From positions 1 through 64,000 of IMG/VR virus record IMGVR_UViG_3300021090_000013: a DNA stretch of 64,000 nt. One strand, written 5' to 3'. This document shows, piece by piece, positions 103-64,000 of the stretch (position 1 is its first letter; each line of letters opens with the position of its first letter). The notes beneath the pieces were generated by a model, which was not told the DNA's origin, searched no databases, and saw only the letters and a list, made by a program, of their open reading frames with translations. Source of the DNA: a virus. The translations under genes were made by a program, and so were the position numbers.

Positions 103-519
103 ATGGCGCGCCCACGCAAGCCGACCGCCCTACGAGTGCTGACCGGAAAAGCCGGCCATCGCCCGCTCCCGAAGAATGAGCCGAAGCCTGAGTTAGGCGC
201 CGTGCCGCCGCCGTGGATGACGGCGCCGGGGGCCGTGGCTGAGTGGGACAGGATGGCTCCGCGCCTGCTCAAGCTGGGGCTGCTCACAGAGGTGGATGGC
301 GAGGCGCTGGCGTTGCTCTGCGGCCACCTGGCAGACGCTGGCGAGCAAATGCGCATGGCCCGGCCGGTGGACCCGCGGTTGACATCGGAGATCCGTCAGT
401 TCCTCGGGCAGTTCGGGCTCACGCCAGCATCACGGGCCAAGGTGACGAGCGCGAATCCGAAGGAAGACGTTGACCCGTTCGCAGCATGGAAGGTCCCGAG
501 TGGCGGCAAGAAAGGCTGA
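103..519 (+). CDS. terS: terminase small subunit, P27 family
   Basis: N-terminal RPRKPTALRVLTGKAGHRPL and C-terminal FGLTPASRAKV are typical of P27-family TerS; lies directly before TerL. Confidence 0.9.
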   Translation: MARPRKPTALRVLTGKAGHRPLPKNEPKPELGAVPPPWMTAPGAVAEWDRMAPRLLKLGLLTEVDGEALALLCGHLADAGEQMRMARPVDPRLTSEIRQFLGQFGLTPASRAKVTSANPKEDVDPFAAWKVPSGGKKG

Positions 520-2263: not shown

Positions 2264-2412
2264 GACTCCAAGCCTCGGTTGTCGACCGTCTTGCCGTCCT
2301 CGCCGGTGCGGGGCTCGTCCTCTATGGCGTGTCCATGTGGTCACGACCAGCAGCCGTCATCCTCGCCGGGCTGTTCCTGTTGGCCGGCGCTCTATGGAGG
2401 ACTCGCCAGTGA
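2257..2412 (+). CDS. small two-TM membrane protein between terminase and portal
   Basis: Hand-translated MVRLQASVVDRLAVLAGAGLVLYGVSMWSRPAAVILAGLFLLAGALWRTRQ; overlaps both neighbours; usual position in HK97-like phages; below the ORF-track cutoff. Confidence 0.7.
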   Translation: MVRLQASVVDRLAVLAGAGLVLYGVSMWSRPAAVILAGLFLLAGALWRTRQ

Positions 2413-41549: not shown

Positions 41550-42125
41550 TTGCGAGGAGCCCCCAAACGGCAGAAGCGCTCGCCCACCGCCAAGGCGAAG
41601 CGCAAGCCAGCGCGGCGGAAGGGCCGGGGGCTCAAGGCCGGCCAACCTGCAGGCCTGGTGACGCGTGCCGAGGCTGCGGCCGCGCTTGGCGTGGAGCCGA
41701 ACCGGATCAACAAGTGGGCGGCTGACGGCGCTCCCATAGCCAAGCGCGGGAGCCGTGGGCATTCGGCCTACTACGACCTCGACGCCCTGCGGGCCTGGCG
41801 GGACGCACGACAGCCCCCCAATCGTGATCCAGGCCTGAGTTTGGGCGCGGCGCGGGCCCGTGCGGCTGAAGCCCAGGCCGTCAAATGGGAGCGCGAGAAC
41901 GAGCTGCGCGCTGGCCAACTCCTCGAGCGCGCTGCGGTGGTGGCGGAGGGGCAAGCGATCCTGGCGGCGCTCAAGTCTCGGCTGCTGTCGCTGCCGCGGC
42001 AGGCCGTGATGCGCGGGGTGATTCAGCGAGAGACGGAGCCGGCCCTCCATGCCTTGGTGGTCGAGGCGCTCAGAGAGCTGAGGCGCTGGACGGTAGGCGG
42101 GGAGCCGATGGAGGCCTCCGCGTGA
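41550..42125 (+). CDS. terS: terminase small subunit, Nu1-like
   Basis: wHTH VTRAEAAAALGVEPNRINKWAADGAP...YDL plus coiled coil; precedes GpA; start uncertain. Confidence 0.85.
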   Translation: MRGAPKRQKRSPTAKAKRKPARRKGRGLKAGQPAGLVTRAEAAAALGVEPNRINKWAADGAPIAKRGSRGHSAYYDLDALRAWRDARQPPNRDPGLSLGAARARAAEAQAVKWERENELRAGQLLERAAVVAEGQAILAALKSRLLSLPRQAVMRGVIQRETEPALHALVVEALRELRRWTVGGEPMEASA

Positions 42126-44023
42126 GCACGCCCGCGCTCGCCGCCGACTGGTTGTCTGCCCTCGAACCGCCGCCCAACCTCAAGGTCAGCGAGTGGGCCG
42201 AAAAATACCGGATGCTTCCGGAAGCGAGTGCGGCCCGGGGCGGGAAGTGGGCGAACGAGACGGCGCCGTACCTCGTCGGGATCATGGATGCCGCGCGCGA
42301 GCCGGGGGTCCGCAAGATTGCCGTGATGAAGGGCGTCCAGACGGGCGGCTCGGAGGCACTGAACAACATCATCGGCTACCACATCCACCACGACCCTTGT
42401 CCGATGCTCGTCATCCACCCGGCCGTCGACGTCGCCGAGCAGTACTCGAAGGAACGGCTGTCCGACATGATCCGCTCCACCCCGGAGCTCGCCGCGGTCG
42501 TCCGTGACAAGGCGCAACCGAGGACGGTCGCCCAGCAATCAGAGAGCACCTTGACGATGAAGATGTTCCCAGGCGGCTTCATCATCCTGGGTGGGGCCAA
42601 TAGCCCGAACCCGTTCGCCCGCAGCTCCGTCCGCATCGGCCTTGGGGATGACGTCGATCGCTGGCCCGCAGTGGTCGGAGTCGAGGGAGACCCCGTCGAC
42701 CTTCTGAGCAACCGGGGCACGAGCTTCTATGACGCGGTGACGATCTACGTCTCCACGCCCACGCTCAAGGGCGGGCGGATTGACACGCTCTACTCCATGA
42801 GTGATCGCCGTCGCTACTTCGTACCCTGCCCGCACTGCGGACGATGGGATTGGATGACCTGGAATGCCCCCGACCACCTCAGGGTGAGCTACGAAGGCGA
42901 GGATGCGGACAGCGCTCGGCTTGAGTGCCCCAGCGCGGACCACGGCGGCTGTGGGGGCCAGATGCTCGAGCCGGAGCGCAGGGCGATGGTCGCCCGAGGC
43001 GAGTGGCGCGCTACGGCCCAGGCCCAGGAGCCGGGCCTCGCTGGGTTCCATCTTCCGGCCATGGTCTCGACCCTGGGGGACGTCACGCTCCCTGGCCTTG
43101 TCTCGAAGTGGTTGTCGGCCAGGTCGCGCGGCAAGGAAGCGCTGCGTGTCTTCATCAACACCAGCCTCGCGGAAGGGTGGGAGCATCGAGGGGCCACGCT
43201 CGATTCGCATACGTTGTTGAATCGGCGCGAACCGTACGGCGAGGGGGTCGAGGTCCCAGCGGCAGTGCCCTGCCTGACAGCGGGAGTCGACGTCCAGATC
43301 GATCGCTACGAACTCCAGGTCGTGGGCTGGGGCCTCTTCGGAGAGCGGTGGGTAGTCGACACTGGGGTAGTGCCCGGCAACCCGAAGGCCCCCGAGACCC
43401 AGGCCGGGCTTCTGGAGGCCCTGAGCCGTCGGTATCACCACGCCTCCGGCCACTGGCTGCCCATTCACGCCGTCTGCATCGACTCGGGCTGGCTGCCGGA
43501 GCACGTCTATGCCTTCGCCGCGCGTCATCGCCACCGGCACTTCTATGCGACGAAAGGGATCGGCGGCAAGCGCGGAGAGCCTATCTTGCTGAACGCCATC
43601 ACCAAGGTCCCGATCAACGTGAACGCCGACGGCGCCAAGGCAGACATCATGAGCAGCATCGGCTTGGTGGCGCCCGGGCCCGGCTACATGCACTTCCCTG
43701 AACGGGTCGACGAGGAATACTTCGCCCAGCTCTGCTCGGAGCATTCAGAGACGAGGAAGAACAAGGCGGGCGTCGTCACCGAGGAAATCTGGATCCAGGA
43801 CCGGACCAGGAACGAGGCTCTCGATACCGCCGTCCTGGCCCTCGCGGCCTTCCGGATTCTAGCCAAGGGGAAGGAAAACGATTTCCTGAGGAACATGCTG
43901 GCCATCCTGGCATCGACTCCGCCGGCCCCCGGTGGTGACGGTCAGGTACCACCGCCGCAGGCGGCCCCCCAGCCAGCAGGACAGCAACGGCGAGTCGGGA
44001 GGTCTTCCTACCTTGGGCGCTGA
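42122..44023 (+). CDS. terL: terminase large subunit, lambda GpA family
   Basis: PPPNLKVSEWAEKYR, MKGVQTGGSE, STPT, PCPHCG, AGVDVQ, IDSG, RNEALD motifs. Confidence 0.95.
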   Translation: MSTPALAADWLSALEPPPNLKVSEWAEKYRMLPEASAARGGKWANETAPYLVGIMDAAREPGVRKIAVMKGVQTGGSEALNNIIGYHIHHDPCPMLVIHPAVDVAEQYSKERLSDMIRSTPELAAVVRDKAQPRTVAQQSESTLTMKMFPGGFIILGGANSPNPFARSSVRIGLGDDVDRWPAVVGVEGDPVDLLSNRGTSFYDAVTIYVSTPTLKGGRIDTLYSMSDRRRYFVPCPHCGRWDWMTWNAPDHLRVSYEGEDADSARLECPSADHGGCGGQMLEPERRAMVARGEWRATAQAQEPGLAGFHLPAMVSTLGDVTLPGLVSKWLSARSRGKEALRVFINTSLAEGWEHRGATLDSHTLLNRREPYGEGVEVPAAVPCLTAGVDVQIDRYELQVVGWGLFGERWVVDTGVVPGNPKAPETQAGLLEALSRRYHHASGHWLPIHAVCIDSGWLPEHVYAFAARHRHRHFYATKGIGGKRGEPILLNAITKVPINVNADGAKADIMSSIGLVAPGPGYMHFPERVDEEYFAQLCSEHSETRKNKAGVVTEEIWIQDRTRNEALDTAVLALAAFRILAKGKENDFLRNMLAILASTPPAPGGDGQVPPPQAAPQPAGQQRRVGRSSYLGR

Positions 44024-44699
44024 GATCGCCCTCGTGACGGCGAACATGGGCGGCCTCGACCCGCTCTTCGCCCTGCCGCCACACCCGGGCGTCGACGCCT
44101 TCTACTACACCGACCGGCCAGATGCGGTGCCAAGCGGATGGACCGGGTCCTTTGTGGTGGGAGATGGAAACCCGCGACTGCTCGCCAAGCGCTTCAAGTG
44201 CCAGGCCCACCGGCTCGCCGAGGTTCAGGGCTGCCGCTGGCTGGCGTGGGCGGACGCCAGCTTCGAGTTCCGCTCGCTCGACTTCCTGCATGCGTGGGCC
44301 GCGCTCGCAGGCGACGAGGGCGCTTGCGCCGTGTTAGTCCCGCACCCGGACCGGGGGACGGTGGCGGAAGAGTACGCCTACGTGCTGCGGCAGATCGCGG
44401 GTGGGAATAAGTACCTGAGCAGCCGGTACTCAGCGGAGGTGCTCAGGTGCGAACGCGCGCACTTCAGCCGTACGCACGAGCTCGAGAAGCTCCGGCTGTG
44501 GGCCGGCGGGATGTGGCTCTTCGCCAACGTGCCGCGCACGCACGAGTTCCTCAACTCTTGGTGGGACTGCGTGCTGCGGTTCTCGATCCTCGACCAGACG
44601 TCTATGTCGCCTCTGCTGGCAGATCACGGGATCGAGCCGGTCGCCTTCAGCGGGAACCTCTACGACAACCAGCACTGGGTGAGGCACCCGCACCCATGA
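44013..44699 (+). CDS. glycosyltransferase-like protein (DUF616/TOD1-MUCI70-like)
   Basis: VTANMGGLD, YTD, NPRLLAKRFK, WADAS, HPDR, DQTS motifs; GGAGG RBS before TTG. Confidence 0.75.
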   Translation: MGAEIALVTANMGGLDPLFALPPHPGVDAFYYTDRPDAVPSGWTGSFVVGDGNPRLLAKRFKCQAHRLAEVQGCRWLAWADASFEFRSLDFLHAWAALAGDEGACAVLVPHPDRGTVAEEYAYVLRQIAGGNKYLSSRYSAEVLRCERAHFSRTHELEKLRLWAGGMWLFANVPRTHEFLNSWWDCVLRFSILDQTSMSPLLADHGIEPVAFSGNLYDNQHWVRHPHP

Positions 44700-45238
44700 A
44701 CAAGCTTCTACTTTGTGCAGGTCCCACGCGCCCCGCAGGGTTCGTGCGACTGGACTCCAACCCCGCGCACGAGCCGGACATCCTCGCAGAGATCCCGCCG
44801 CTACCGGAGGAGGTGCGGGCCACCAGGTGGGACGTCGTCGAGCTGGTACATGGGATCGAACACTTCTGGCCATGGGATGCTGGGCCGCTCCTCCAGGAGA
44901 TTCACGAGGCGCTGCGCCCGGGAGGGGTGCTGGTGCTGGAGCAACCCAACGCCATCGTCGGAGCGCGAGCCCTGCTCGGATTCCAGGAGATGCCCGGTGC
45001 CCCTCGCGCGGACGGCCCCACCACCCTCACGGGAGTCGACAACTCCGAGGGCATGTGGTCCCTCTACGGAGATCCCAATCACCGCGACCCTGGCTATATG
45101 CACCGTTGGACATACAGCCCCGTGTCCCTCACGGCCTTGCTCCGCAGCGTCGCGCCCTGGTCCTCGATCGAGGCTCGCCCGCAGCAGTACCACACGTACG
45201 CCCGCGGCCGGGACTTCCGGCTGGAGGCCGTCCGGTGA
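44696..45238 (+). CDS. class I SAM-dependent methyltransferase
   Basis: HGIEH...EIHEALRPGGVLVLEQPN; degenerate motif I. Confidence 0.75.
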   Translation: MNKLLLCAGPTRPAGFVRLDSNPAHEPDILAEIPPLPEEVRATRWDVVELVHGIEHFWPWDAGPLLQEIHEALRPGGVLVLEQPNAIVGARALLGFQEMPGAPRADGPTTLTGVDNSEGMWSLYGDPNHRDPGYMHRWTYSPVSLTALLRSVAPWSSIEARPQQYHTYARGRDFRLEAVR

Positions 45239-45888
45239 TCCTTACGGCTGTGCCTTACGCCGACGACATGAACCTCGGTCAAGCCTACAACGAGACCTTC
45301 GACCTCGTGGGGCCGGATGACTGGGTGGCGCTTCTCGATCACGATCTATTCTTCACGACCCCGGTGTGGCACCGGCAGCTCCGGGAGGCGGCTGCGGCCG
45401 AGCCGGAGGGGTGCTTCACCGCCATCACCAACCGCATGGCGAACCGGTGGCAGGTCGCACCGGAGGCGGCCGGGGCGGTCGTTCGTGCTGCGAACGGGTC
45501 CATTTCCAGGAGGGGCGAGGACAGCGTCGCCCACCACAGGAGGGTGGGTACGGAGCGGTTGAAGACGCGCACCCTGTTGGACGTGACGGAGACGCAGGGC
45601 TGGGGAGGCGTGCTGATGCTGATCAGCAAGCGGGCCTGGCTGGATGCTGGCGGCTTCGTCGACGGCCTCTTGTGCGTGGATCATGTTTTTCACTACGCGT
45701 TACGCGCTGCCGGCCGGAAGGTCTGGCTCATCGAAGGGCTCTATGTCTTCCACTGGCGTGGGACAAGCGGAGGGCCGCGCCCGCCGGGCCCAGAGATCCC
45801 GCGTGCTAGCGACCCACGGACCGGAAACGGCTGCCCCTGCCGGACGATCCCGCACGGCGATCCGAAGGTGCGGAGGCGGCTGCCGTGA
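45235..45888 (+). CDS. GT-A fold glycosyltransferase, paralog 1
   Basis: NLGQAYN, WVALLDHD (DxD), GGF, GLYVFHW. Confidence 0.75.
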   Translation: MILTAVPYADDMNLGQAYNETFDLVGPDDWVALLDHDLFFTTPVWHRQLREAAAAEPEGCFTAITNRMANRWQVAPEAAGAVVRAANGSISRRGEDSVAHHRRVGTERLKTRTLLDVTETQGWGGVLMLISKRAWLDAGGFVDGLLCVDHVFHYALRAAGRKVWLIEGLYVFHWRGTSGGPRPPGPEIPRASDPRTGNGCPCRTIPHGDPKVRRRLP

Positions 45889-46727
45889 TCCTTTGCGCCG
45901 TCCCGTTTGCCGGAGAGGTCTACTTCCTGGCGGATCCGCGCGCTCCGAACGCGCCGCGGTATGTCGGTAAGACTTCTCGCGGCCTGACCCGGAGACTTTA
46001 CGGGCACCTTGCGAGCGCTCGTCATGGCGGAAGGGCCCATCGGGATCGTTGGGTTAGCTCGCTCCTGTTGGTCGGACTGTCTCCGGCGATCTGCCGTTTG
46101 TCGGTGGCATGGACCGAGGAGCAACTTAATACACAGGAGCGCGCTTGGATTGACGGATATCGCGCGGCCGGCGTCCTCCTTTGCAATCTCACCGACGGGG
46201 GAGATGGAACCCTTGGCCATTCTCCATCTCCTGAGGCACGGGCCAAGAAGTCCGCCGCGCTGATTGGGCGGAAACGTCCACCAGAAGTGTGCTCGAAAAT
46301 CGGAGATTCCAAGCGCGGCCGAGTCCTTTCGCCTGAGCACCGAGCCAAATTGAGCGTTGCCGGTCGCGGGCGGACGAGGACGTTTTCTCTGGGGCACCGA
46401 GCGAAGTTGAGCGCTCGCCAGACCGGCCGCAGCCTTTCCGCCGAGCATCGAGCGAACATCGGAGCGGGCCTTAGGCAGGCGTGGGCTCGGCCAGAAGTGA
46501 AAGCGAACCGTATCGCCGCACAACGCGCGACGGACCCAGAGGCGAGAAGGCGCAGCGCTTTGATTGCAGCAGCGGCATCTAACCAACCTGAGGCGCGCGC
46601 TCGCCGGGCCATGGCCATAAGGGTCGCGCTGGCCGACCCGGACGTGAGGCTGCGACGGAACGCCTTGACAAGTCTGGCCCTCAAGGCGGCGTGGGCCCGG
46701 CGAAAGGCCGCGGGTACTGCGTCGTGA
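45885..46727 (+). CDS. GIY-YIG/NUMOD3 homing endonuclease
   Basis: VYFL.DPR...RYVGKT...RL..H, NLTDGGDG, repeated SPEHRAKLS NUMOD3-like units; lower GC. Confidence 0.85.
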   Translation: MILCAVPFAGEVYFLADPRAPNAPRYVGKTSRGLTRRLYGHLASARHGGRAHRDRWVSSLLLVGLSPAICRLSVAWTEEQLNTQERAWIDGYRAAGVLLCNLTDGGDGTLGHSPSPEARAKKSAALIGRKRPPEVCSKIGDSKRGRVLSPEHRAKLSVAGRGRTRTFSLGHRAKLSARQTGRSLSAEHRANIGAGLRQAWARPEVKANRIAAQRATDPEARRRSALIAAAASNQPEARARRAMAIRVALADPDVRLRRNALTSLALKAAWARRKAAGTAS

Positions 46728-47308
46728 TCTTTACGATGACGCCTTTCGCAATAGACATGAACTACGGGAGAGCCTGCAACGAGTTCATGGGGCTACTTCC
46801 AGACGATGGGTGGGGCTGCATAATCGATCACGACGCGATGTTCACGACGCGGGCCTGGTTCCGCCAGATCGAGGAAGCGATCGACTTCCGTCCCGACGCC
46901 GGCGCCTTCACGGCGGTGAGCAACCGGATCGCCCGCCGTTGGCAGCAGGCCGGGAACAAGGACAGCCACGACATTGTGCAGCACCGTCGCTTCGGTGCGG
47001 CCCGCCTCAAGACCCGCACGCTGCTCGACATCACCAACACGCACGGGTTCGGCGGCGTCGTGATCGTGATCAGCAAGAAGGCGTGGCGCCAGGTCGGGGG
47101 CTTCGTCGACGGGATGCTCTGCGTTGACCATCGGATGCACTTCGCGCTCCGCGAGGCCGGGCGCCGCGTTTGGCTGATCGAGGGTCTTTTCGTCTACCAC
47201 TGGCGGCGGGCCCAGGGCGACGGCCCGCCGGCGAATGCGCCACGCGCGGCCGGGTGCCCCTGTCGCGGTACCGAGAGCATGCCCACCGTGAGGGTGGCCC
47301 TTCCATGA
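46724..47308 (+). CDS. GT-A fold glycosyltransferase, paralog 2
   Basis: NYGRACN, IIDHD, RLKTRTLLD, GGFVDG.LCVDH shared with paralog 1. Confidence 0.75.
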   Translation: MIFTMTPFAIDMNYGRACNEFMGLLPDDGWGCIIDHDAMFTTRAWFRQIEEAIDFRPDAGAFTAVSNRIARRWQQAGNKDSHDIVQHRRFGAARLKTRTLLDITNTHGFGGVVIVISKKAWRQVGGFVDGMLCVDHRMHFALREAGRRVWLIEGLFVYHWRRAQGDGPPANAPRAAGCPCRGTESMPTVRVALP

Positions 47309-48045
47309 CGCGCCTCGTCTCCTGCTACTTTGGCGGCGAGGATTGGAACCGCATGGCCAGGGTGCTGGAGTTCGGCGCGCGCCGTCACTGCCCAGGATGG
47401 GACGTCGACGTTCGCAGGATCGACCCGCCTCGGCCGACCCACTCCCTGTCCGCGAACAAGGTCGGCAACACCCGCAAGCTCGACTGGTGGGCCGAGCAGG
47501 TGCAGGCGGCGTCGGACGGCGCGCAGCTCCTGCTCATCGACACCGACACCATGATCCTCGGCCCCCTCGATGCCGCCTGGGGCGAGAGCTTCGATCTTGC
47601 CTACACCTTCCGGGACGGCCAGGTGACCGGGCGGTTTCCTCTGAACGCGGGCGTCATCTTCCTGCGCGTATCGGATCGTGTGCGGGCCTTCATGGGCCGC
47701 TGGCGCGAGGAGAACCGGCTGATGCTGGCGGATCCTCGGCGGCACGCGCCTTGGTATAGGCGTTTCGGTGGAATGAACCAGTCGGCCCTGGGGAAGCTCC
47801 TCACCGAGGGCGCGGACAGGGCGCTTGGAGTCCAACTCGGACGCCTACCTTGTTCCAGGTGGAACGCCGAGAACACGACCTGGGAGCGATTCGACCCCGC
47901 GACGACGCGGATCGTCCACCTCAAGAACGGCTTGCGCCTGGCCGCGCTGGCGAAGGCTGCCAACGCCCCCAGGTTCAAGCCGCTGGTCCGACTCTGGCGC
48001 GGCCTGGAGCGGGAGGCGCTTGCCGCCCAGGGGTCCACCGCGTGA
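47305..48045 (+). CDS. nucleotide-diphospho-sugar transferase-like protein
   Basis: LLIDTD (DxD), NAGVIFLR, NQ.AL, LPC..WN, IVHLK motifs. Confidence 0.75.
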   Translation: MTRLVSCYFGGEDWNRMARVLEFGARRHCPGWDVDVRRIDPPRPTHSLSANKVGNTRKLDWWAEQVQAASDGAQLLLIDTDTMILGPLDAAWGESFDLAYTFRDGQVTGRFPLNAGVIFLRVSDRVRAFMGRWREENRLMLADPRRHAPWYRRFGGMNQSALGKLLTEGADRALGVQLGRLPCSRWNAENTTWERFDPATTRIVHLKNGLRLAALAKAANAPRFKPLVRLWRGLEREALAAQGSTA

Positions 48046-48308
48046 GCGCGAAGCTCTGGTTCACGGTCCACGAGGTCGCCCTGCTGCTACACATCGCCAG
48101 ACGGACAGTCCGCCGGCTGATCGAGCCGCATCGCGAGCGCTGCCACCTGGCACGCCAGGGACGCCATCCAAGACTCGTGCTGTGGGTTCCGTCTTCGGTT
48201 GTGGGGGAGCTGCGCCGGGAGCGGCGGGCCATGTGGCGGGGGCGGTTCGTCAGTCCCGCAGATCAACTCGCTCTACAGGAAACCCCTGTCAAGCCCTTTT
48301 CACCGTAG
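48042..48308 (+). CDS. HTH DNA-binding protein (possible late activator)
   Basis: FTVHEVALLLHIARRTVRR. Confidence 0.7.
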   Translation: MSAKLWFTVHEVALLLHIARRTVRRLIEPHRERCHLARQGRHPRLVLWVPSSVVGELRRERRAMWRGRFVSPADQLALQETPVKPFSP

Positions 48309-48336
48309 CCTCTCACCGTGGCCTCTCACCATGGCC
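48298..48336 (+). repeat. three tandem 13-bp repeats T[CT]TCACCRTRGCC
   Basis: TTTCACCGTAGCC / TCTCACCGTGGCC / TCTCACCATGGCC. Confidence 0.8.
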
Positions 48337-48380
48337 ACCACGGCAAGCCCACCAAAAACCGACCGTAACCTGTAGCTGCG

Positions 48381-48629
48381 ATGGCGTTGAGCCTGGAGCA
48401 GTTGCAGGCAGACCGAGACGCGATCAGTCGGACGATCGCCCGGGGCGAGCTGTCGGTCACCTTCTCCGACAGAACCACGATGTACAGGTCCGTTTCGGAT
48501 TTGAAGCTGGCGCGGGACATCATCGACGGAGACATCGCCCGCCTTGCCGGTCGCCCAAGGCAGACCGTCATCACCGGCCGCAAGGGCTTCACCCCGTTCG
48601 GCGGCGGAGCCGGGATCGGGAGCTTCTGA
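48381..48629 (+). CDS. head-tail joining protein, gpW-like
   Basis: IARGELSVTFSDRTTMYRSVSDL; precedes lambda portal. Confidence 0.85.
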   Translation: MALSLEQLQADRDAISRTIARGELSVTFSDRTTMYRSVSDLKLARDIIDGDIARLAGRPRQTVITGRKGFTPFGGGAGIGSF

Positions 48630-50203
48630 TGGGCGGCCAGCAGCTAGCGCTTCCGCTCGGCTCCCCGCGGGCAGCCCTCGCGCCGAAGATCCGAAACTCC
48701 ACCAACGCCGCCGTCTACGAGGCCGGGAGCTTCAACGCGCGCACGATGGGCTGGCGCGCGCCCACGGTCAGCCCGAACAGCGCGATCCTCTACAGCCTCG
48801 CGGCGCTGCGCGATCGTTCGCGACAGGCCGTCCGAAACAACGGCTTCGCCAAGGGGATCATCGACAAGCTCGTCACCAACATCGTTGGGACCGGCATCAA
48901 GCCCCTTTCGAAGGCCGCGGACGCCGATTTCCGGAAGGCCGTCCAGGCGCTCTGGCTACAGTGGACCGACTTCTCTGATGCGGACGGAGTCCTCGACTGG
49001 TACGGCCAGCAGGCGCAGGCGGTCCGGTGCTGGCTGGAGGCCGGCGAGGTCTTCGTTCGGTTGCGGCAGCGACTCCCCGAGGATGGCCTGCCCGTCCCAC
49101 TGCAGGTCCAGGTCCTCGAGCCAGAGATGTGCCCCTACACCTACAACGGCACGAGGGGCGCCAACAAGATTCGCGCGGGGATCGAGTTCGACCCGGTCGG
49201 GCGCCGCGCGGCCTACTACTTCTACGCCTCGCAGCCGGGCGCCCTGCTCGACTGGAATGTCACCGACCTCCGTCGGATTCCGGCCGAGTCTGTCATCCAC
49301 TTGTTCGACCCCTTGCGCGCCGGCCAGATCCGTGGGCTTCCCCACCTCACCCAGGCCCTGATCAAGCTCTACGAGCTGGACAAGTTCGACGACGCGGCGT
49401 TGCTGCGTCAGCAGATCGCCAATCTCTTCGCAGGATTTGTGAAGCGGCCCGCCGATGGAGGCTCCGATGTCCATCCGCTCACCGGCCTGGCCGCCGACGC
49501 CACCACAGCCGAAGGCCGTCCCGTGCTGAGCCTCGAGCCGGGGATCTTCCAGGAACTTTCGCCGGGCGAGGAGGTGGAGTTCTCGGACCCTCCCGATCCG
49601 CCCTCGACCTACCCGAGCTTCATGCGGCAGCAGCTCATGAGCATCTCGGCCGCGACGGGCGTCCCCTACGAGGTCCTGACCGGCGACATGGCGGGGCTGA
49701 ACGACCGGGTGATGAGGGTCGTCCTGCACGAGTTCCGCCGGATGATCATCTCCCGGCAGCACCACATCGTGGCCTTCCAGCTTTGCCGGACCGTCTGGGG
49801 CGCCTGGCTGGACCGCGTGGTCCTCAGCGGAGCGCTGCCGATTCCGGCCGCCGCCTACGCTGTGGACCCGCGGCCATGGTCCGCCGTCAAGTGGATGCCG
49901 CAGGGGTGGCCCTACATCCACCCGGTGCAGGACGTGACCGCGACCAAGGATGCGATTCGAGCCGGGTTCACGTCGCGCTCGGCCGCCGTCTCCGAGCAGG
50001 GCGAGGACTCCGAGGTCATCGACGCCGAGCAGGCCGCGGACAACGAGCGTGCCGACGAGCTTGGACTGATCTACGAATCAGATGGTCGGCAAGCGGCCAA
50101 GGCGCCGGCGAGCGGTCCTCCAGTGCCCATGGCCGAGCCAGACGATCCGGCCACGAACCCCGACGATCCGCCGGCGGACCCCGCCGCTGCAGCAGGAGCA
50201 TAA
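48629..50203 (+). CDS. portal protein, lambda family
   Basis: LRDRSRQAVRNN, NIVGTGI, GIEFD..GR, RAGQIRG, YEVLTGD, YIHPVQDV. Confidence 0.95.
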   Translation: MGGQQLALPLGSPRAALAPKIRNSTNAAVYEAGSFNARTMGWRAPTVSPNSAILYSLAALRDRSRQAVRNNGFAKGIIDKLVTNIVGTGIKPLSKAADADFRKAVQALWLQWTDFSDADGVLDWYGQQAQAVRCWLEAGEVFVRLRQRLPEDGLPVPLQVQVLEPEMCPYTYNGTRGANKIRAGIEFDPVGRRAAYYFYASQPGALLDWNVTDLRRIPAESVIHLFDPLRAGQIRGLPHLTQALIKLYELDKFDDAALLRQQIANLFAGFVKRPADGGSDVHPLTGLAADATTAEGRPVLSLEPGIFQELSPGEEVEFSDPPDPPSTYPSFMRQQLMSISAATGVPYEVLTGDMAGLNDRVMRVVLHEFRRMIISRQHHIVAFQLCRTVWGAWLDRVVLSGALPIPAAAYAVDPRPWSAVKWMPQGWPYIHPVQDVTATKDAIRAGFTSRSAAVSEQGEDSEVIDAEQAADNERADELGLIYESDGRQAAKAPASGPPVPMAEPDDPATNPDDPPADPAAAAGA

Positions 50204-55748: not shown

Positions 55749-56356
55749 AGGTCTGCAAGAAACGCGGCCATCAATATTCCGCAGAGCGCAGGCAGTGTCC
55801 TGTTTGCCGGCTACTTTCTCGGCGCACCTCAGAAGCCGGTAGGCGCGAGCAGATCCGCGTCCAGAAACGGACATGGGATGCCAATCGTGAGAAAAGGAAA
55901 GCCTCTGCTCGCAGGAATTACCTCTCCCATCGCGAGGCTTGGGCGGAAAGGACTCGCAACCGGAGATCGGCCAACCTGGAAGCTTATCTGGCAAATTGCC
56001 GCTCCTATCAACAAGCCCATCGAGAACGCCACAACGAGCACGTGGCCAAATACCAGAAGGCCCATCCTGAAAAGCACGCCGAGCGCGAGGCGCGACGGCG
56101 CGCCCGAAAGCGCGCCTCGTTGATCGAACCATTCTCGTGGGTCGAGTGGTGCGCAGTGGTTGACTTCTACGGTGGGCTTTGTGCCTACTGCGCCCAACGT
56201 CCGTGGGAGCACAAAGAGCACGTCGTGCCGCTAGCTCGTGGCGGTGCGCATGCCCTCTGGAACCTCGTCCCATCATGCAAGCGTTGCAACTACCGAAAAC
56301 ACACTAAGACCTGGGCGCCGCTCAAGCGCCATCCAGCGATGGCGGAGGCTGCGTAA
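55745..56356 (+). CDS. HNH endonuclease
   Basis: CAYC...EHVVPLARGGAH...NLVPSCKRCN..K; lower GC. Confidence 0.88.
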   Translation: MKVCKKRGHQYSAERRQCPVCRLLSRRTSEAGRREQIRVQKRTWDANREKRKASARRNYLSHREAWAERTRNRRSANLEAYLANCRSYQQAHRERHNEHVAKYQKAHPEKHAEREARRRARKRASLIEPFSWVEWCAVVDFYGGLCAYCAQRPWEHKEHVVPLARGGAHALWNLVPSCKRCNYRKHTKTWAPLKRHPAMAEAA

Positions 56357-56357
56357 G

Positions 56358-58781
56358 ATGTCCGAACGGCTCGCCCGCGGCGTCATCGAGATCGCGATCG
56401 ACGACAAGGACGTCCGGGCCGGCCTCGCCCGCGTGACCGGCGCCTCCGACAGCGCGGCGCACTCGGTCGCCGGCATCAGCGACGGGATGAGGACCTCCTT
56501 CGGGGCGGTGGCCACCGTCCTGGGCGGAGCGGTCACAGCCATCGCGGGAATCACCACCGGAATCGTGGCCCTGGGCATCCACGGGTCTGACGTTGCCGAC
56601 GTCCAGGAAGCCTTCTCCGGGCTCTCGGAGGGGATGGGCTCCACCGCAGACGTGATGCTGGGCGTGCTTCAGGAAGGGACCCAGGGCACCATCTCGAACT
56701 TCGACCTCATGAAGATGTCGAATGCGGCCCTCGGAAGCGGGCTCATCACCTCTTCCGAGAGCATGGCCACGCTGGCGGCTGGGGCGAAGCTGCTCGCAGA
56801 TAGCACCGGAGGCGATACCGCCGAAGCCTTCGACACCTTGACCACGGCGATGGCAAGTGGCCGCACGGCCGCCCTCAAGCACCTGGGCATCTTCGTCGAC
56901 AGCAAGGTGGCGGTCGAGGACTACCGCAAGTCCACGGGCCACCTCACCGGCGAGCTGACTGACGGCCAGCGTGCGACGGCGCTCAGCGAGGCCGCCCTGC
57001 GGGCGCTCCGAAAGCAGGTCGACGAGAACGGGATCTCCGTAAAGGACTTCTCCGACAACGTCGCCCGCGTCAAGGTCGCCGTCCAAAACTGGACCGACAG
57101 CCTGGCCGTCGCCATTGCCAAGTCCCCAGTCTTGTCCGCCGGGATGGGGGTGCTGGGCACGGCCATCACGAACGCCTTCGGCTCGAACCAGCAAGCGCAA
57201 ACGCAAGCCCTCGCGCGTCATGTCGGGAGCTTCGCCATCGGCATAGTGAACACGGGCATCGTCCTTGGCACGTTCGCCTCGGTAGCCAATGCCGTCTTCT
57301 CCGGGGTCCGGGTCGTCGTGTTGTCCGTCCTCGAAACCTTCGTGGTCCTCGCCACCGGTATCGTCGGAATCATCAATGAGCTTGTCCACGGGGCCAGCAC
57401 AATCCCGGGGTTCAGCCTTGCCCTGGGCGGAGTGGAGGCATCGACTACCGCGGCGACACTCGCGCTGGATGAGATGGCGCACGGGCTGACCGAGCAGATC
57501 GGAGAGGCGGCGAAGGGAGTCGCCGGCAACAACGAGCTCGGCCAGAAGATCACCGCGACCACCGGCACCTTCATGCTCATGCGGGACGCGATGGTCAAGG
57601 CCCAGACCGAGCAGCTCAAGGTGACCGCGACGGCCCCGCACCCGGCGATCAAGAAGGTGGGCGACGAGGCCGGGCTCACGGCCGCGCAGATGCTGGCGCT
57701 GGCCGAGGCCGAGCGCACCGCCACAGATCGCGCCTTTGCGATGAACCAAACGCTTGAGGCCAAGGGACAGGAGCTTCAAGACAACCTGACGGCGTCGACT
57801 CTTAGCGGCGTGGATGCGCGGCTCTTTCAGATCAATCGAGAGCGCGAAGCCGCCCTGGCGAGCCTGGCGCAGTACGCGCGCTCCTACCCGGTGTGGTACG
57901 CGGCGCAAGTCCTCGCGGTGCAACTGACCTACGGCAACATGACGGCGGCCGCGCAGGGCCACTTCACCACCGTGAAACAGGCTGCCGAGGCCGCCGGTTT
58001 CGCGTTGCGATCAACACTCCAGGCCACGTCCGCCAACGCCACGACCCTCTACGCCGACATGCTCGCAAGTGGGCAATTCACCTACGCCCAGCTCGTCGCG
58101 GCCGGCCAGGCATCAGCCAATGCCCAGCAGTTGGCTAACGGCGGGACGGCGCTGACTCATGATGAGCAATTGCGAGAGACGGCCCGAATCGCGGCCGAGG
58201 CATACGCAGCGATCACGAGAGCTGCTGTAGCCTCGGACGCCGAGATCGAGCGGGCCCACAGGGCATCGGCCGACGCCCAAAAGGCGGTGGACGAGGCCGT
58301 GCTCAGGGCCCGACTCGGCCATGCAGCAATGGCCCTCGACGCCGCCTCCTCAATGATCGGCTCCATCTTCTCGCACAACAAGTCGACGGCGATCGCGATG
58401 GCCTTGATCGACACCGCGTCGGCCATCGTCAAAGCCATCGCTGCGACCCCCTTGCCCTGGGGCCTGATCCCGGCCGCGGCGGCCGCTGCCATGGGCGCCG
58501 CCCAGATCGCGACGATTCGGAACACGAACCCGGGCCACGCCCTAGGCACGCCGCGGCTCGACTTCGCCGACTTCGGCTCGGAGTCCTTCCAGCCGCTGCA
58601 CAACCAGGAGGCCGTCATCCCCCGTGGCGGCGGACACCTGTTGGCCGGCGAGATCGCTGACTCCATGGGTGGTAGCGCCGAGCTGGGGGCCAAGCTCGAT
58701 CGAATCGCGGACCTCCTCGAACGACAGCCAGCCGAGATGCGCAAGGCCTACCGCAACGCGTTCCTGCTGGACACGGCCTGA
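56358..58781 (+). CDS. tail tape measure protein (module 2)
   Basis: 807 aa, Ala-rich; ALKHLGI; C-terminal DFG...LH..EAVIP like tape measure 1. Confidence 0.9.
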   Translation: MSERLARGVIEIAIDDKDVRAGLARVTGASDSAAHSVAGISDGMRTSFGAVATVLGGAVTAIAGITTGIVALGIHGSDVADVQEAFSGLSEGMGSTADVMLGVLQEGTQGTISNFDLMKMSNAALGSGLITSSESMATLAAGAKLLADSTGGDTAEAFDTLTTAMASGRTAALKHLGIFVDSKVAVEDYRKSTGHLTGELTDGQRATALSEAALRALRKQVDENGISVKDFSDNVARVKVAVQNWTDSLAVAIAKSPVLSAGMGVLGTAITNAFGSNQQAQTQALARHVGSFAIGIVNTGIVLGTFASVANAVFSGVRVVVLSVLETFVVLATGIVGIINELVHGASTIPGFSLALGGVEASTTAATLALDEMAHGLTEQIGEAAKGVAGNNELGQKITATTGTFMLMRDAMVKAQTEQLKVTATAPHPAIKKVGDEAGLTAAQMLALAEAERTATDRAFAMNQTLEAKGQELQDNLTASTLSGVDARLFQINREREAALASLAQYARSYPVWYAAQVLAVQLTYGNMTAAAQGHFTTVKQAAEAAGFALRSTLQATSANATTLYADMLASGQFTYAQLVAAGQASANAQQLANGGTALTHDEQLRETARIAAEAYAAITRAAVASDAEIERAHRASADAQKAVDEAVLRARLGHAAMALDAASSMIGSIFSHNKSTAIAMALIDTASAIVKAIAATPLPWGLIPAAAAAAMGAAQIATIRNTNPGHALGTPRLDFADFGSESFQPLHNQEAVIPRGGGHLLAGEIADSMGGSAELGAKLDRIADLLERQPAEMRKAYRNAFLLDTA

Positions 58782-60380: not shown

Positions 60381-60665
60381 ATGGCTTGGACCGCACCAAG
60401 ATCTTGGGCTCAGGGCCAACTCGTCGAGGCTGCCGATCTGAACGAGCAGGTGCGGGACAACCTCGCACACCTGAAGTTGCTCGTGAACGACGACGGCAAG
60501 ATCCCGATCCTAAGTGACACCTATCTAGCCGATCTCTCGGGAGCGAATCTCACAGGAGTCGCCAAGATCGCCGCGAATAACGACTTCACGGGGGTAAACA
60601 ATTTTGGCTTTGGCATAGGTGCTCGCCTGATCCTTCCGACCGGTTCCGATCGATGGGCGACATGA
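60381..60665 (+). CDS. minor tail protein, short paralog of the HxD protein N-terminus
   Basis: MAWTAPRSW...RDNL..LK...NNDFTG...RLILPTGSD. Confidence 0.75.
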   Translation: MAWTAPRSWAQGQLVEAADLNEQVRDNLAHLKLLVNDDGKIPILSDTYLADLSGANLTGVAKIAANNDFTGVNNFGFGIGARLILPTGSDRWAT

Positions 60666-61606
60666 GCTGGACGACGCCGCGCACATGGGTCGACGGGGAA
60701 GTGACCACGGCGGCTCAGTTCGATGCCCACATTCGCGACAACCTAACGGTGCTGAAGGTCACACGCAACGCCGAGGGGCGGCTGATAGAACTCTCTAGCA
60801 CGACCATTGAGGACCTCACCGCACCCGATAAAGGCATGGCGGGGGTTGGGAGTAACAACAACTTCACGGGCGGGTCGACGAAGTTCAGCGGAGCCGGAAG
60901 GTTGGTTCTTCCCGTCGGTGCGGACAAATACGTGTCATACCCCTTCGGCCTTCGTTCGGGATTCTGGGTCGAGGGTGACTATCTGCACCACGTCCAGAGC
61001 GACCAGACGACAGAATGGCATTATCTCGGCGAGTACGTATCGACGCCAGCGGGCGCAGTGCCAGGCTCTATCTGGGTCGAGGGCAATTACCTCCACTACA
61101 TCGACGCCGACGGCGACGAGCGGCGGTGTCTCTCGGCCGGCGTAACGGGACACGCCGACGCGGCTGCGGTCGGCGGCTCGACATGGGTCGAGACGTTCGT
61201 TCACTGGATCCGTGAAGCCGGGGCCCTGGAATGCCCGGGACATGCCGACGTCGCCCATGCGGACGGGTCCGAGCACAACGACGGTCACGGGGACCTCGCG
61301 CATGCGGACTCGCACGCGGACTCCGGCCATGCGGACTCGCACACGGATGGAGCGCACGCCGACGAGCACTTCGATGTTGCGCACGCCGACGACCATGACG
61401 ACCACGGCGACACGCTCGACACGCCCAACCACGCCGACGAGCACTTCGATGTTGCGCACGGTGACGTGCACGTGGACTACCACTTCGACACGCATGCCGA
61501 CGAACCGCATAGCGACGACCACAACGACTCGCACACCGACTGGCATTTCGACCACGAGGATTATTCCGACTCCCCGACGCTGAACCAGCCAACGGTGGTT
61601 GTGTGA
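60662..61606 (+). CDS. tail-fibre-like protein with C-terminal His-Xaa-Asp repeat array; putative radical SAM substrate
   Basis: MSWTTPRTWVDGE N-terminus, three WVE repeats, 24 HxD triplets. Confidence 0.85.
   Translation: MSWTTPRTWVDGEVTTAAQFDAHIRDNLTVLKVTRNAEGRLIELSSTTIEDLTAPDKGMAGVGSNNNFTGGSTKFSGAGRLVLPVGADKYVSYPFGLRSGFWVEGDYLHHVQSDQTTEWHYLGEYVSTPAGAVPGSIWVEGNYLHYIDADGDERRCLSAGVTGHADAAAVGGSTWVETFVHWIREAGALECPGHADVAHADGSEHNDGHGDLAHADSHADSGHADSHTDGAHADEHFDVAHADDHDDHGDTLDTPNHADEHFDVAHGDVHVDYHFDTHADEPHSDDHNDSHTDWHFDHEDYSDSPTLNQPTVVV
61241..61570 (+). repeat. His-Xaa-Asp coding array with an exact 31-bp internal duplication (61355-61385 = 61430-61460)
   Basis: Counted from translation and DNA. 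Confidence 0.9.
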
Positions 61607-62814
61607 GTGTCGAGGTGAACATCGTTGGGACGCGGTGCAAGATGGCTTGCGCCTATTGCTACCAGTTGCCCGTACGCGTGGCGACGAACAACCGTGCACT
61701 GCGCCTCCTCGACCATTCGGCGATCCGTGCGGCGGTCGTAGCGGCGAACCCCGGCCCTGCCGGCTTCAGCATCTTTGGAGGCGAGCCGCTTCTCGCGGCG
61801 ATCGAGGATCTCGAAAAGCTCTGGACCTTCGGCCTCGAGCGCTACGGGAAGAATGGAGTCCAGACGAGCGGCTCGGAGATCGGGGAGGAGCACCTCGCGC
61901 TGTTCAAGAAGTACCGGGTCCACGTCGGGTTCTCCATCGACGGGCCAGGGGAATTGAACGACGCCCGGCATGCCGGCACGCCAGACCAAACCCGCGCGGC
62001 CACAGCTCATTCCGAGGCGATGCTGAGGCGGTGCCTGGCGGAGAAGGTCGGCGCGTCCCTGATCGTGACCCTACACCGCCTCAACGCAGCGCCCGATCGA
62101 CTCCCGCGCCTTCTCGCCTGGTTCCGCGATCTCGACGCCGTTGGCCTCTCCAGCGTGCGGCTTCACCTCCTGGAGCGAGATGGGCCAGGCGGCGAACGCC
62201 TTGCGCTGACATCGGAGCAGAACACGGCCGCGCTCTTCGCCGCTCGCGACCTGGAGCCGTCTCTCGCTCGACTAAAGTTCGACGTCTTCGCCGACATCGA
62301 GAAGAAGCTCCTCGATCCGACTACGTCGGCGACGTGCGTCTGGAACGGCTGCGATCCCTGGACCACGCCGGCAGTCCAGGGGATCGAGGCCGATGGCTCG
62401 CGGGGCCTATGCCAGCGCGTCCACAAGGACGGGAAGCAGTGGCGTCCGGCGGACCAGCACTCGAACATCCGCCAGGTGGTCCTCTGGAACACGGCGCAAG
62501 AGGACGGCGGCTGCCGCGGCTGCCGGTTCTTCCTGCAGTGCGGCGGACACTGCCCGGGCACTGCGATAGGCGGTGATTGGCGCAACCGCTCAATCGACTG
62601 CCCGACGTGGTTCGCGCTCCTGGAGCGAACGGAGCTGGAGATGGTGGCCCGCGGAGAGCAACCGGCCTCACTCGCCGCCGACCTTGAGGCGCGGATTGAA
62701 CGCTCCCTCGTCGGAGCCGCTGCGCCGAGCGGCCATGGGGACGCACACGGAGACTCTCCACACGGTGACGATCACGGAGACCATACGGACGCGGGCGACG
62801 AGGGGCACGCATGA
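61603..62814 (+). CDS. radical SAM/SPASM domain peptide/protein maturase
   Basis: CKMACAYC (CxxxCxxC), FGGEPLL, SIDGP...ND.R, C-terminal CRGCRFFLQCGGHCP SPASM-like cluster. Confidence 0.92.
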   Translation: MSVEVNIVGTRCKMACAYCYQLPVRVATNNRALRLLDHSAIRAAVVAANPGPAGFSIFGGEPLLAAIEDLEKLWTFGLERYGKNGVQTSGSEIGEEHLALFKKYRVHVGFSIDGPGELNDARHAGTPDQTRAATAHSEAMLRRCLAEKVGASLIVTLHRLNAAPDRLPRLLAWFRDLDAVGLSSVRLHLLERDGPGGERLALTSEQNTAALFAARDLEPSLARLKFDVFADIEKKLLDPTTSATCVWNGCDPWTTPAVQGIEADGSRGLCQRVHKDGKQWRPADQHSNIRQVVLWNTAQEDGGCRGCRFFLQCGGHCPGTAIGGDWRNRSIDCPTWFALLERTELEMVARGEQPASLAADLEARIERSLVGAAAPSGHGDAHGDSPHGDDHGDHTDAGDEGHA

Positions 62815-64000
62815 CCGACCTTCCCCGTGAGTGGTGCCGGCCACCACAGTGGCTCGCTGGCGATTCGCGCGAGGCCTGGGAACCCGTCCTCCGTGCCGCC
62901 CAGGCCGCGTGGTCAGGGCTCGAGCTCGTCTCGATCACCGAGGGCCTGCGCGAATCCGCCATCGTCCATCTCGAGGCTGACGATCTCGCGCGCGCCGGGG
63001 CTGACGTCTCCCGGGTAGGCTTGGCCCTGTCGGTGCTGGAGCACAAGGAAGGCTCCTTTCGTGCGGTCGTGCACCATCCCCGCCTGGCCGCGGCCTGGCA
63101 TGCGGCCTGGGCTGCCGGCGATCACGAAGCGGTCGGCGTGCTGCTCGGCTTTCCGGCCTGCTGCCGCGCCTTCTTCTCCCGCGAGTGGGTCGCCGCCGGC
63201 TCCTACCGCGACCTCACCTTCGCCATGGACACGGTTGATGGCCCGTGGGAGGCGAACACGATGCTGCGCTGGCTCGGCGTCCGGCTGGTGCCCCACCTGC
63301 CCTGCAGCAGCTCGTGCGCCGAGACAGTCGCCCAGGCGCGGGCCTACCTGGAGGCGGGGCGCAGGGCCGGGGTCGACGTTGCGTCCCTGGAGACCGTCCT
63401 CAGGCTGCCAGTGACCCACGATGCGGCCAACGAAGTGGCGATCGTCAGCACGCCGCACTTCCGGTTCCTGGCAGGCGCCGACCGTGGGGCGAAGCGGGCC
63501 GTGGCCCGGAGATCCCAGGAGGAGCCCGGGAGCTGGACCGACAACGGCTTCGCGTCCCACGCGGCCATGGACCAGGCCCACGGGGCAATCCTGAGAGTGG
63601 TCGGCTGGGAGGCGCGGTCCGGGCTCGACCTTGGCTGCGGTGATGGTCGACTCTTATGGAGGGCCGCCCGTCCAGCCAGCGGGCCCTGGGATGGGGTCGA
63701 GTCCGACCCGGGCAGGGCCGAACGCGGGAGCCGCCGCTACGGGCCGCTGGTCACGGTGACCACCGGGAGGATCCAGGACGCCGACCTCTCGGCGGCGACC
63801 TACGACGTCGTCTTCTTGATGCCCGGCCGCCTGGTGGAGATGGACCCGCTGGAGGCCGCCAGGATCCGGGCCGCGCTGCCGGGCCTCGGGCGCCGGCTCG
63901 TCTTGTACGCCTACGGAGACTGGCTCGCAGACGGGCTACCGGCCCTGGCTGAGCGAGCAGGCCTGGGCGTGGTCGGAGACGTCGCCACCTCGCCCGGCAC
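62811..64000 (+). CDS. DUF483-like domain fused to class I SAM methyltransferase (3' truncated by window edge)
   Basis: Hand translation with no stop from ATG 62811: LLGFPACC..FF, RLVPHLPCSSSC, then GLDLGCGDGRLL...GVESD. Confidence 0.8.
   Translation, partial: MTDLPREWCRPPQWLAGDSREAWEPVLRAAQAAWSGLELVSITEGLRESAIVHLEADDLARAGADVSRVGLALSVLEHKEGSFRAVVHHPRLAAAWHAAWAAGDHEAVGVLLGFPACCRAFFSREWVAAGSYRDLTFAMDTVDGPWEANTMLRWLGVRLVPHLPCSSSCAETVAQARAYLEAGRRAGVDVASLETVLRLPVTHDAANEVAIVSTPHFRFLAGADRGAKRAVARRSQEEPGSWTDNGFASHAAMDQAHGAILRVVGWEARSGLDLGCGDGRLLWRAARPASGPWDGVESDPGRAERGSRRYGPLVTVTTGRIQDADLSAATYDVVFLMPGRLVEMDPLEAARIRAALPGLGRRLVLYAYGDWLADGLPALAERAGLGVVGDVATSPG

Follow-up and report, generated by a model that had tools for sequence, protein, structure and literature searches.

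The window analysed here, 64,000 nucleotides long, covers positions 1 to 64,000 of the virus record IMGVR_UViG_3300021090_000013 of IMG/VR, which measures 73,294 bases. Close to the end of the window a gene encodes a radical S-adenosylmethionine (SAM) enzyme of 403 amino acids (aa) that terminates in a run of His-x-Asp (HxD) triplets. The same triplet is iterated in a fibre-like protein encoded immediately upstream; the gene found downstream encodes a weakly DUF483-like protein, called below the partner. The tail may be a tethered substrate-type peptide, engaged by the active site of the enzyme and either modified there or held as a pseudo-substrate. We put this forward tentatively, as a possibility somewhat short of an even chance. 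The features on which the analysis is centred are the following.

61603 to 62814, plus strand: radical SAM/SPASM-type protein maturase, 403 aa (open reading frame, Pfam, predicted structure, Foldseek)
62713 to 62733, plus strand: hypervariable linker between the last helix and the tail, residues 371-377, part of a segment predicted to be disordered
62734 to 62811, plus strand: HxD tail of the enzyme, residues 378-403, HGD-A-HGD-SP-HGD-D-HGD-HTD followed by AGDEGHA

Translation of the interval 62734-62814 on the plus strand gives the last 26 residues of the enzyme, HGDAHGDSPHGDDHGDHTDAGDEGHA, followed by the stop codon, and confirms the C-terminal tail of five HxD triplets described in the first-pass annotation. 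Four HGD and one HTD triplets start at residues 378, 382, 387, 391 and 394, and are thus spaced by 4, 5, 4 and 3 residues. Five of the six His of the tail head a triplet; the sixth, in GHA, is found outside any of them. Five HxD are present in a tail of 28 residues, versus one in the other 375 residues of the protein. When the 28 residues were shuffled, 1.45 HxD were found on average, and five or more were reached with P = 0.001. The sole repeat detected in the tail DNA consists of two 27-nucleotide units, 70% alike, in which His and Gly codons differ between the copies. Because the repeat is weak and these codons have diverged, the pattern is maintained at the protein level and does not result from recent slippage.

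The last codons of the tail (62795-62813), GAC GAG GGG CAC GCA TGA, include a purine run, GAGGGG, that precedes the start codon (ATG) of the next gene by about 8 bases; this ATG is overlapped by the stop codon of the enzyme. Given the run and the overlap, the residues following the last triplet may reflect translational coupling rather than a function of the tail.

Conservation and distribution of the tail

Tails are common among relatives of the enzyme. In the 120 best database homologues, which are 45-100% identical to it, at least three HxD were found in the last 70 residues of 78 proteins, and none in 33. A set of loci was also assembled by scanning one-genome-per-species contigs and viral contigs, and by adding the record of the Thermus phage Cumys. 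After dropping three partial matches (L023, L149 and L156) and identical duplicates, the set includes 148 distinct full-length enzymes. At least three HxD follow the core in 71 of these, one or two in 12, none in 65. Tail-bearing enzymes span 34-81% identity and come from many phyla. In the 28 closest homologues the columns of the linker are unconserved, and the core of the tail, HGDxxHGDxHGDHxD, is at least 80% conserved. Since the motif is kept across enzymes 34-81% identical while the adjacent linker drifts, the tail is, on the evidence of these comparisons, a selected part of the enzyme, maintained by purifying selection. Homologues lacking the tail, or featuring unpatterned His-rich ends, had been named at the outset as what would refute the first reading. 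This is not what is seen, as about half of the relatives have a strongly patterned HxD tail.

The decapeptide HGDxHGDHTD, a narrow pattern built from the tail consensus, was back-translated and searched for as an exact match. In 2.9 million viral contigs 36 stretches were found, 35 of which correspond to C-termini of these enzymes; the frame holding the 36th is cut by the edge of the locus, and matches the C-terminus of a 683-aa form of the enzyme (L171). In 241 million metagenome records 72 stretches were found, in 75 frames: enzyme tails account for 70 and an array protein for one, and the remaining four have no similarity. The two scans are not independent, many of the contigs being from the same viruses. 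By these counts the decapeptide is almost confined to the C-termini of the enzymes described here. A phmmer search of 1.84 billion representative proteins, with the last 40 residues as query, returned no match at E <= 0.001, the query being too short and of too low complexity to be informative.

In some enzymes the tail is expanded. There are 14, 19 and 31 HxD in loci L161, L154 and L076, respectively, and about 230 residues made of PHGDH(T/V)D units in L171. Copy numbers rising up to the size of an array are what would be expected of a fused substrate. One viral lineage features two radical SAM paralogues side by side (L158 3943-5991 and, for the second enzyme, L158 5998-7359; the 683-aa frame in L171). 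The approximately 230 additional residues of PHGDH(T/V)D units belong to the first paralogue, in which they are interrupted by a hydrophobic stretch resembling a membrane segment.

A second motif, short and conserved, L-x-G-G-E-x-V, is found 5-15 residues past the HxD tail in many homologues (P0010-P0028 and others). It is absent from the window enzyme and its eight closest relatives, and is present in three of the 148 enzymes of the locus set.

The possibility that tail-less enzymes rely on a split precursor, i.e. on a stand-alone small reading frame encoding the tail, has been discarded. Small HxD frames were found in 7 of the 65 tail-less loci; all are array-like pieces, and none has the tail motif.

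Tail and array motifs

The fibre-like protein and its array are located as follows.

60653 to 61606, plus strand: fibre-like protein, 317 aa, presumed main substrate, with the HxD array in its C-terminal part
61241 to 61555, plus strand: array of 24 HxD triplets, residues 197-301, spaced almost only by 4 or 5 residues

Arrays, defined as at least six HxD within 60 residues in a frame other than that of the enzyme, have been identified in 123 of the 148 loci, and the array proteins adjoin the enzyme. In 55 of the 71 tail-bearing loci the array gene is upstream of the enzyme gene. In tail-less loci the array is often hosted by proteins of 900-2,000 aa or placed downstream of the partner gene; in cellular genomes, too, the array is often part of proteins in that size range.

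A single rule governs tails and arrays. Nearly every His has an Asp at +2, in tails and arrays alike. In the arrays, when His is missing at position 1, it is mostly replaced by Tyr (106 cases, observed/expected ratio 1.44) or Phe (67 cases, 0.92), all other residues having ratios of about 0.1. When Asp is missing at position 3, it is mostly replaced by Asn (56 cases, 0.42), the remaining residues being below 0.1. The same tendency is noticed in the tails, where cases are fewer: Tyr, Trp or Phe triplets were found in 7 of 141 tail regions, and in some tails, such as that of Cumys, YTD is in register with the usual HTD. The unit common to tails and arrays is accordingly aromatic-x-Asp, or [H>Y,F]-x-[D>N]. 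The earlier suggestion that HxD, and not a general richness in His, is the unit is thereby supported, His being nearly always accompanied by Asp at +2 and the exceptions being Tyr or Phe for the one and Asn for the other.

The two classes of sequences differ in the residue found between His and Asp. Among 300 triplets taken from 68 short tails, Gly occupies the middle position in 64% and Thr in 16%; among 4,090 array triplets the figures are 21.5% for Thr, 15.8% for Gly and 15.7% for Ser. Pairs of directly adjoining triplets (HxDHxD) are HGDHTD in 53% of the cases in tails and in 5.7% in arrays. The spacing style, initially described as the same in the enzyme and in the upstream array, is indeed shared: the tail advances by steps of 4, 5, 4 and 3 residues, and the array almost only by steps of 4 or 5.

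Enzyme family and fold

Two Cys-rich regions of the enzyme are relevant to its classification.

61636 to 61659, plus strand: CxxxCxxC motif (C12, C16, C19) of the SAM-cleaving [4Fe-4S] cluster, from sequence and alignments
62335 to 62601, plus strand: Cys-rich C-terminal SPASM-like region (C245, C250, C270, C304, C307, C313, C317, C333)

The assignment to the radical SAM superfamily, made earlier from the reading frame, holds: the CxxxCxxC motif is in place at C12/C16/C19, and the Pfam family Radical_SAM (PF04055) is matched with 39.5 bits, above the cut-off of 29.5. The three Cys are invariant in an alignment of 36 sequences, and at least 90% conserved in one of 110 sequences, from which the long enzyme forms have been excluded. 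The eight Cys located between residues 245 and 333 are invariant in both alignments. The SPASM model TIGR04085 scores 20.5 bits, under its cut-off of 27, and the predicted structure superposes on the SPASM enzymes anSME, ChlB, SuiB and CteB. The nearest matches in NCBIfam are the cyclophane-forming maturases AmcB, DynA, YhhB, XyeB, GrrM/OscB, HxsB and FxsB, and anSME, all scoring far under the cut-offs. The enzyme falls in none of the cyclophane-maturase families named in NCBIfam, the best match being AmcB (57.4 bits versus 425) and the others scoring lower; the anSME family TIGR03942 is similarly not reached (51.1 bits versus 349.45). ChlB is named a multiple cyclophane synthase in the reference list of PMC12912966.

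The AlphaFold2 model of the enzyme, obtained from the 110 sequences, has a mean predicted local distance difference test score (pLDDT) of 91.7 and a predicted template modelling score of 0.88. Foldseek and a profile search of the PDB gave as top matches anSME (4k36, E 1.6e-14, TM score 0.68) and ChlB (9gm3), with E values of about 1e-14. Invariant Cys, nearest NCBIfam families and fold matches together indicate that the enzyme is probably a SPASM-type protein or peptide maturase, outside every named family.

In the same model the last helix spans residues 361-370, and residues 371-403 are without structure (pLDDT 47-56); the tail is accordingly predicted to be intrinsically disordered. The approximately 33 disordered residues that follow the last helix might in principle be long enough to reach the cleft. 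Docking was attempted between the core (residues 1-362, with SAM and three 4Fe-4S clusters) and residues 363-403. The median score was 0.34 (runs at 0.02, 0.34 and 0.66), and the best of three controls reached 0.01; the docked segment had a pLDDT of at least 40, and agreement among the runs extended to at least 45% of the contacts. The mark adopted is reached by 58 of 80 solved complexes and by 2 of 110 mismatches; passes at or below 0.60 come from only 7 of the 80 solved complexes, and from both mismatches. The docking thus speaks weakly for an engagement of the tail. Structure prediction had been proposed as a way to see whether the tail reaches the active site: docking gave a weak pass and AlphaFold2 left the tail disordered, and neither separates the three roles suggested at first, a cis-substrate, an autoinhibitory mimic and a metal-scavenging segment.

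Function of the tail

If the tail is a tethered substrate-type peptide, it would be made of tandem copies of the triplet on which the enzyme presumably acts in the fibre-like protein, and would be an accessory part, external to the catalytic core. A flexible stretch of about 30 residues would hold it near the catalytic cleft, and the tail might enter the active site of its own or of a neighbouring enzyme molecule. There it would be cross-linked like the array, a self-modification that by analogy could be a His-to-Asp link at C-beta of the triceptide kind; alternatively, it would act as a place-holder in the site pending the arrival of the fibre protein. HxD as the target of the enzyme, the chemistry involved and the access of the tail to the active site are points that we infer. 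In favour of a tethered substrate, triplet and spacing of the tail are those of the adjoining array, and within the module the motif is found only in arrays and enzyme tails. The families and folds nearest to the enzyme, AmcB, DynA, YhhB, XyeB, GrrM, HxsB, ChlB and anSME, are C-beta-acting maturases, and by sequence and model similarity may be counted on the same side.

Several observations weigh against a tethered substrate. The tail does not simply duplicate the array: judging from the residue counts reported above it is a distinct and far more constrained motif, PHGDxHGDHTD, rich in Gly at x. Such a fixed sequence could equally reflect specific binding or a metal site. The presence of the motif in both neighbours had been regarded as independent support for HxD as the functional unit. 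The same triplet is indeed found in both; the tail motif being distinct and more constrained, it is not independent evidence of the kind given by the array. Arrays are found nearby in 47 of the 65 loci in which the enzyme has no tail triplet, so the tail is accessory and not needed for array processing. On a FastTree phylogeny of the core, the tail state changes 11 times, and at least 5 changes are forced by well-supported branches (shuffled labels gave a mean of 49). With the tree rooted at the midpoint only, the deep, mostly viral branches are all tail-bearing and the tail-less forms are nested inside them, which suggests repeated loss. Tails are associated with dense arrays in small fibre-like proteins, being found in 56 of 69 dense-array loci and in 15 of the 79 others (56/13 versus 15/64, Fisher p = 1.5e-14); the association is not significant in phylogenetically independent pairs, which provide too few contrasts (median p = 0.5). 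No HxD, and no HxD linker, is present in natural fusions joining the enzyme to its DUF483-like partner. The AlphaFold2 model of the whole enzyme, based on 110 sequences, leaves the tail undocked, and the docking pass is ambiguous, as the docked segment took in eight residues of the last helix, which runs on from the core, and the output gave no interface.

The strongest alternative is that the tail binds metal, a role that we consider somewhat unlikely. His/Asp pairs, often preceded by Pro, would chelate Fe, Zn, Ni or Cu, and the tail would either supply the three Fe-S clusters of the enzyme or charge the fibre's HxD array with metal, as a built-in metallochaperone. His-rich tails are known in the metallochaperones HypB, UreE and SlyD. 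Tail regions are disordered, and His makes up 17%, Asp 18% and Gly 18% of their residues; a Gly fixed at x and a Pro that often precedes His go well with a tight chelating turn. Variable copy number fits a capacity function, and dispensability in many lineages an accessory role in supply. Phage tail fibres thread metal via paired His, as in T4 gp37, in which seven iron ions are held in HxH motifs according to the text of PMC11705849. However, the exact decapeptide, though a narrow pattern, was found on no other protein family (36 of 36 viral stretches and 70 of 75 metagenome frames are on the enzymes), and a metal module shared among proteins does not agree with this confinement. Generic His-rich tails are usually unpatterned, while His and Asp are here near-invariant, and position 1 tolerates Tyr and Phe and not Cys, Glu or Asp, which is odd for chelation. 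Since Phe is unable to bind metal, the motif rule points to recognition by a pocket of the enzyme more than to chelation, although one does not exclude the other.

We hold it to be quite improbable that the tail is a docking element, which would bind the HxD array, for instance by strand pairing or metal bridging that keeps the enzyme processive on its repetitive client, or would bind, or be modified by, the DUF483-like/methyltransferase partner. Raw counts link the tail not only to dense arrays but also to viral contigs (52 of 68 versus 17 of 78) and to partners fused to a methyltransferase (57 of 88 versus 9 of 37), and the lack of an HxD tail in covalent enzyme/partner fusions would be sensible if the tail served association. 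These links are nonetheless confounded by phylogeny, the test on independent pairs is not significant, and many unfused enzymes are tail-less. The tail might also be a functionless leftover, for example an array fragment acquired through a shifted gene boundary or a low-complexity extension. Repeated loss (5 to 11 state changes) without loss of the module, and the existence of long fused arrays, are in line with this. The motif is kept in many phyla, across enzymes 34-81% identical, while the linker drifts; the sequence of the tail is distinct from that of arrays, and its codons have diverged; and the location of the array gene, mostly upstream (55 of 71), makes a simple read-through fusion fail as an explanation. 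A leftover is on these grounds very hard to credit.

A co-evolution of the tail with array density, viral origin and partner type was entertained and rejected, as phylogeny confounds the counts and independent pairs are too few.

Comparison with known systems

The closest relative of the locus is the 'rSAM module' noted in the Thermus phages Cumys and phiMa and in prophages (Viruses 2024, PMC11437467). The window features the same three-gene cassette, located, as in the main text of that article, at the end of the tail/baseplate genes. The Cumys and phiMa enzymes are 46-47% identical to the window enzyme over 93% of its length (Cumys 46.7%), and the Cumys tail reads HGD/YTD/HGD/HGD/HWD. The upstream protein of Cumys (gene 13, L001 4961-5992) is 343 aa long and contains 54 HxD. 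The downstream gene, annotated as DUF483, encodes a DUF483-like protein with the same LLG(F/Y)PACCRAFF motif found in the window partner, which in contrast has an added methyltransferase domain. In the main text of the article two of the three module proteins are called unknown, a role in DNA modification is suggested, and the word histidine does not occur, so that both array and tail go undescribed in it (PMC11437467).

Triceptide synthases (XyeB, GrrM/OscB, FxsB, YhhB, HaaB, HtkB, ChlB) are SPASM-type maturases that act on many short aromatic-x-x motifs per substrate, comparable to the [H>Y,F]-x-[D>N] arrays described here. A presumed substrate with repeated aromatic-x-x motifs is found beside the enzyme in the window too, in the form of the array of 24 HxD, and Tyr and Phe are the main replacements of His in arrays. 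Unlike in triceptide systems, the client is not a short leader-core peptide, but a protein of the virion type of about 300 aa or larger, with up to dozens of motifs. No triceptide synthase is known to us that has a tail made of its own motif. Cyclophane links from His C2 to C-beta are established for triceptide enzymes on the motifs HAA, HNR and HTK, as stated in the text of PMC11499958.

The anaerobic sulfatase maturase anSME, the best structural match, is a SPASM enzyme that modifies a folded protein client via hydrogen abstraction at C-beta. No sulfatase is present in the neighbourhood analysed here, and anSME has no substrate-like tail. The His-Xaa-Ser system (HxsA repeats, HxsB/HxsC, HxsD) likewise combines a protein made of triplets of His, any residue and a small residue with a radical SAM enzyme, there of the SPASM class. 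The match of the window enzyme to HxsB has an E value of 1.4e-7 and 30.6 bits, against a cut-off of 370, and neither HxsC nor HxsD was matched by any of the four neighbouring proteins scanned. Unlike in the Hxs system, the triplets end in Asp instead of Ser, and the genes belong to a module of a phage tail.

The clearest precedent for an enzyme modifying its own C-terminal substrate peptide is provided by borosin enzymes such as OphMA. Borosins are N-methyltransferases of fungi and bacteria, in which the tail is the sole substrate and is released as product. Here, in contrast, a separate main client is available, and nothing suggests that the tail is released. By analogy with these systems, the enzyme could be a radical SAM maturase to which its own core peptide is joined by fusion, and would cross-link both the PHGDxHGDHTD tail and dozens of triplets in the fibre; we regard this more specific proposal as rather unlikely.

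No description of HxD arrays as clients, or as tail of an enzyme, was found in the article texts searched. In the N4 paper cyclophane appears only in a cited reference.

Genomic context

Array, enzyme and partner are encoded by three genes with overlapping stop and start codons, the HxD protein being followed by the radical SAM enzyme and by the Cys-motif/methyltransferase protein. The last of the three is located as follows.

62811 to 64000, plus strand: third gene, encoding a fusion of a Cys-motif domain (weakly DUF483-like) to a SAM methyltransferase, from Pfam

The third protein is 405 aa long in full, its gene ending 28 bases past the window. It matches the Pfam family Methyltransf_25 with 30 bits. 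The DUF483 cut-off of Pfam (25 bits) is not reached either by this protein (13.3 bits) or by its homologue Cumys_11 (16.1 bits). Partner homologues are found beside the enzyme in 137 of 162 sources (161 loci and the window). HxD clusters are present in one of 142 DUF483-like partners, and this probably results from read-through into an array. Natural fusions of the enzyme to the DUF483-like partner, about 690-940 aa long, have been identified in L029, L049, L054 and L055, and in P0057, P0068, P0081, P0096 and P0118. Their existence argues that the two proteins work together.

The array protein has no match in Pfam, NCBIfam and PHROGs. The region before the array (60653-61240) contains three G-S-x-W-V-E-G-x-x-L-x-(Y/H) units, and the same units are found in gene 13 of Cumys. 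These units could be the part recognised by the enzyme or by the virion. The start of the HxD protein resembles that of the small tail protein preceding it.

The window hosts two terminase-portal sets. In the second structural block a gene of tape-measure size (56238-58781) and two further genes precede that of the HxD protein. Separate pairs of terminase large subunit and portal genes are located at 470-3986 and 41885-50203, and two genomes of phages, or two modules, may stand in tandem in the record. Just past the end of the window (L163 2026-3775) three more frames follow the methyltransferase gene. They encode a Cys-rich protein of 173 aa, a minus-strand product in which an HNH-like H-H-L-D-H...N is discerned by eye, and a protein featuring the tail-protein start PRTW...RDNL.

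The cassette formed by HxD array, radical SAM enzyme and DUF483-like protein occurs widely, both among viral contigs and in genomes from many phyla. The titles of the records hosting it include Acidobacteriota, Chloroflexota, Actinomycetota, Myxococcota, cyanobacteria, Planctomycetota and one Nitrososphaeraceae archaeon.

Biological significance

Radical SAM/SPASM maturases are normally thought to tailor small secreted peptides. Here, a probable SPASM maturase is found in a block of phage tail genes, with relatives in many phyla, beside a fibre-like protein that consists mostly of a single triplet, and itself bears a conserved miniature run of this triplet, fused to it as a substrate-like signature. 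PMC11437467 is the sole paper found on the module. Should the tail be a tethered substrate or pseudo-substrate, it would represent a new way to control or prime a radical enzyme, and would provide a compact handle on His-x-Asp chemistry. Should it bind metal, it would link the enzyme to metal-threaded fibres such as the HxH-iron needles of T4. Under either reading, the decapeptide HGDxHGDHTD is a sharp sequence marker for the module. The fusion of the enzyme to its core peptide is directly testable, since the module is present in culturable Thermus phages. If this proved true, virion proteins would be RiPP-like products, akin to peptides that are made by the ribosome and modified after translation, and the modified tail would be a built-in primer, regulator or metal site.

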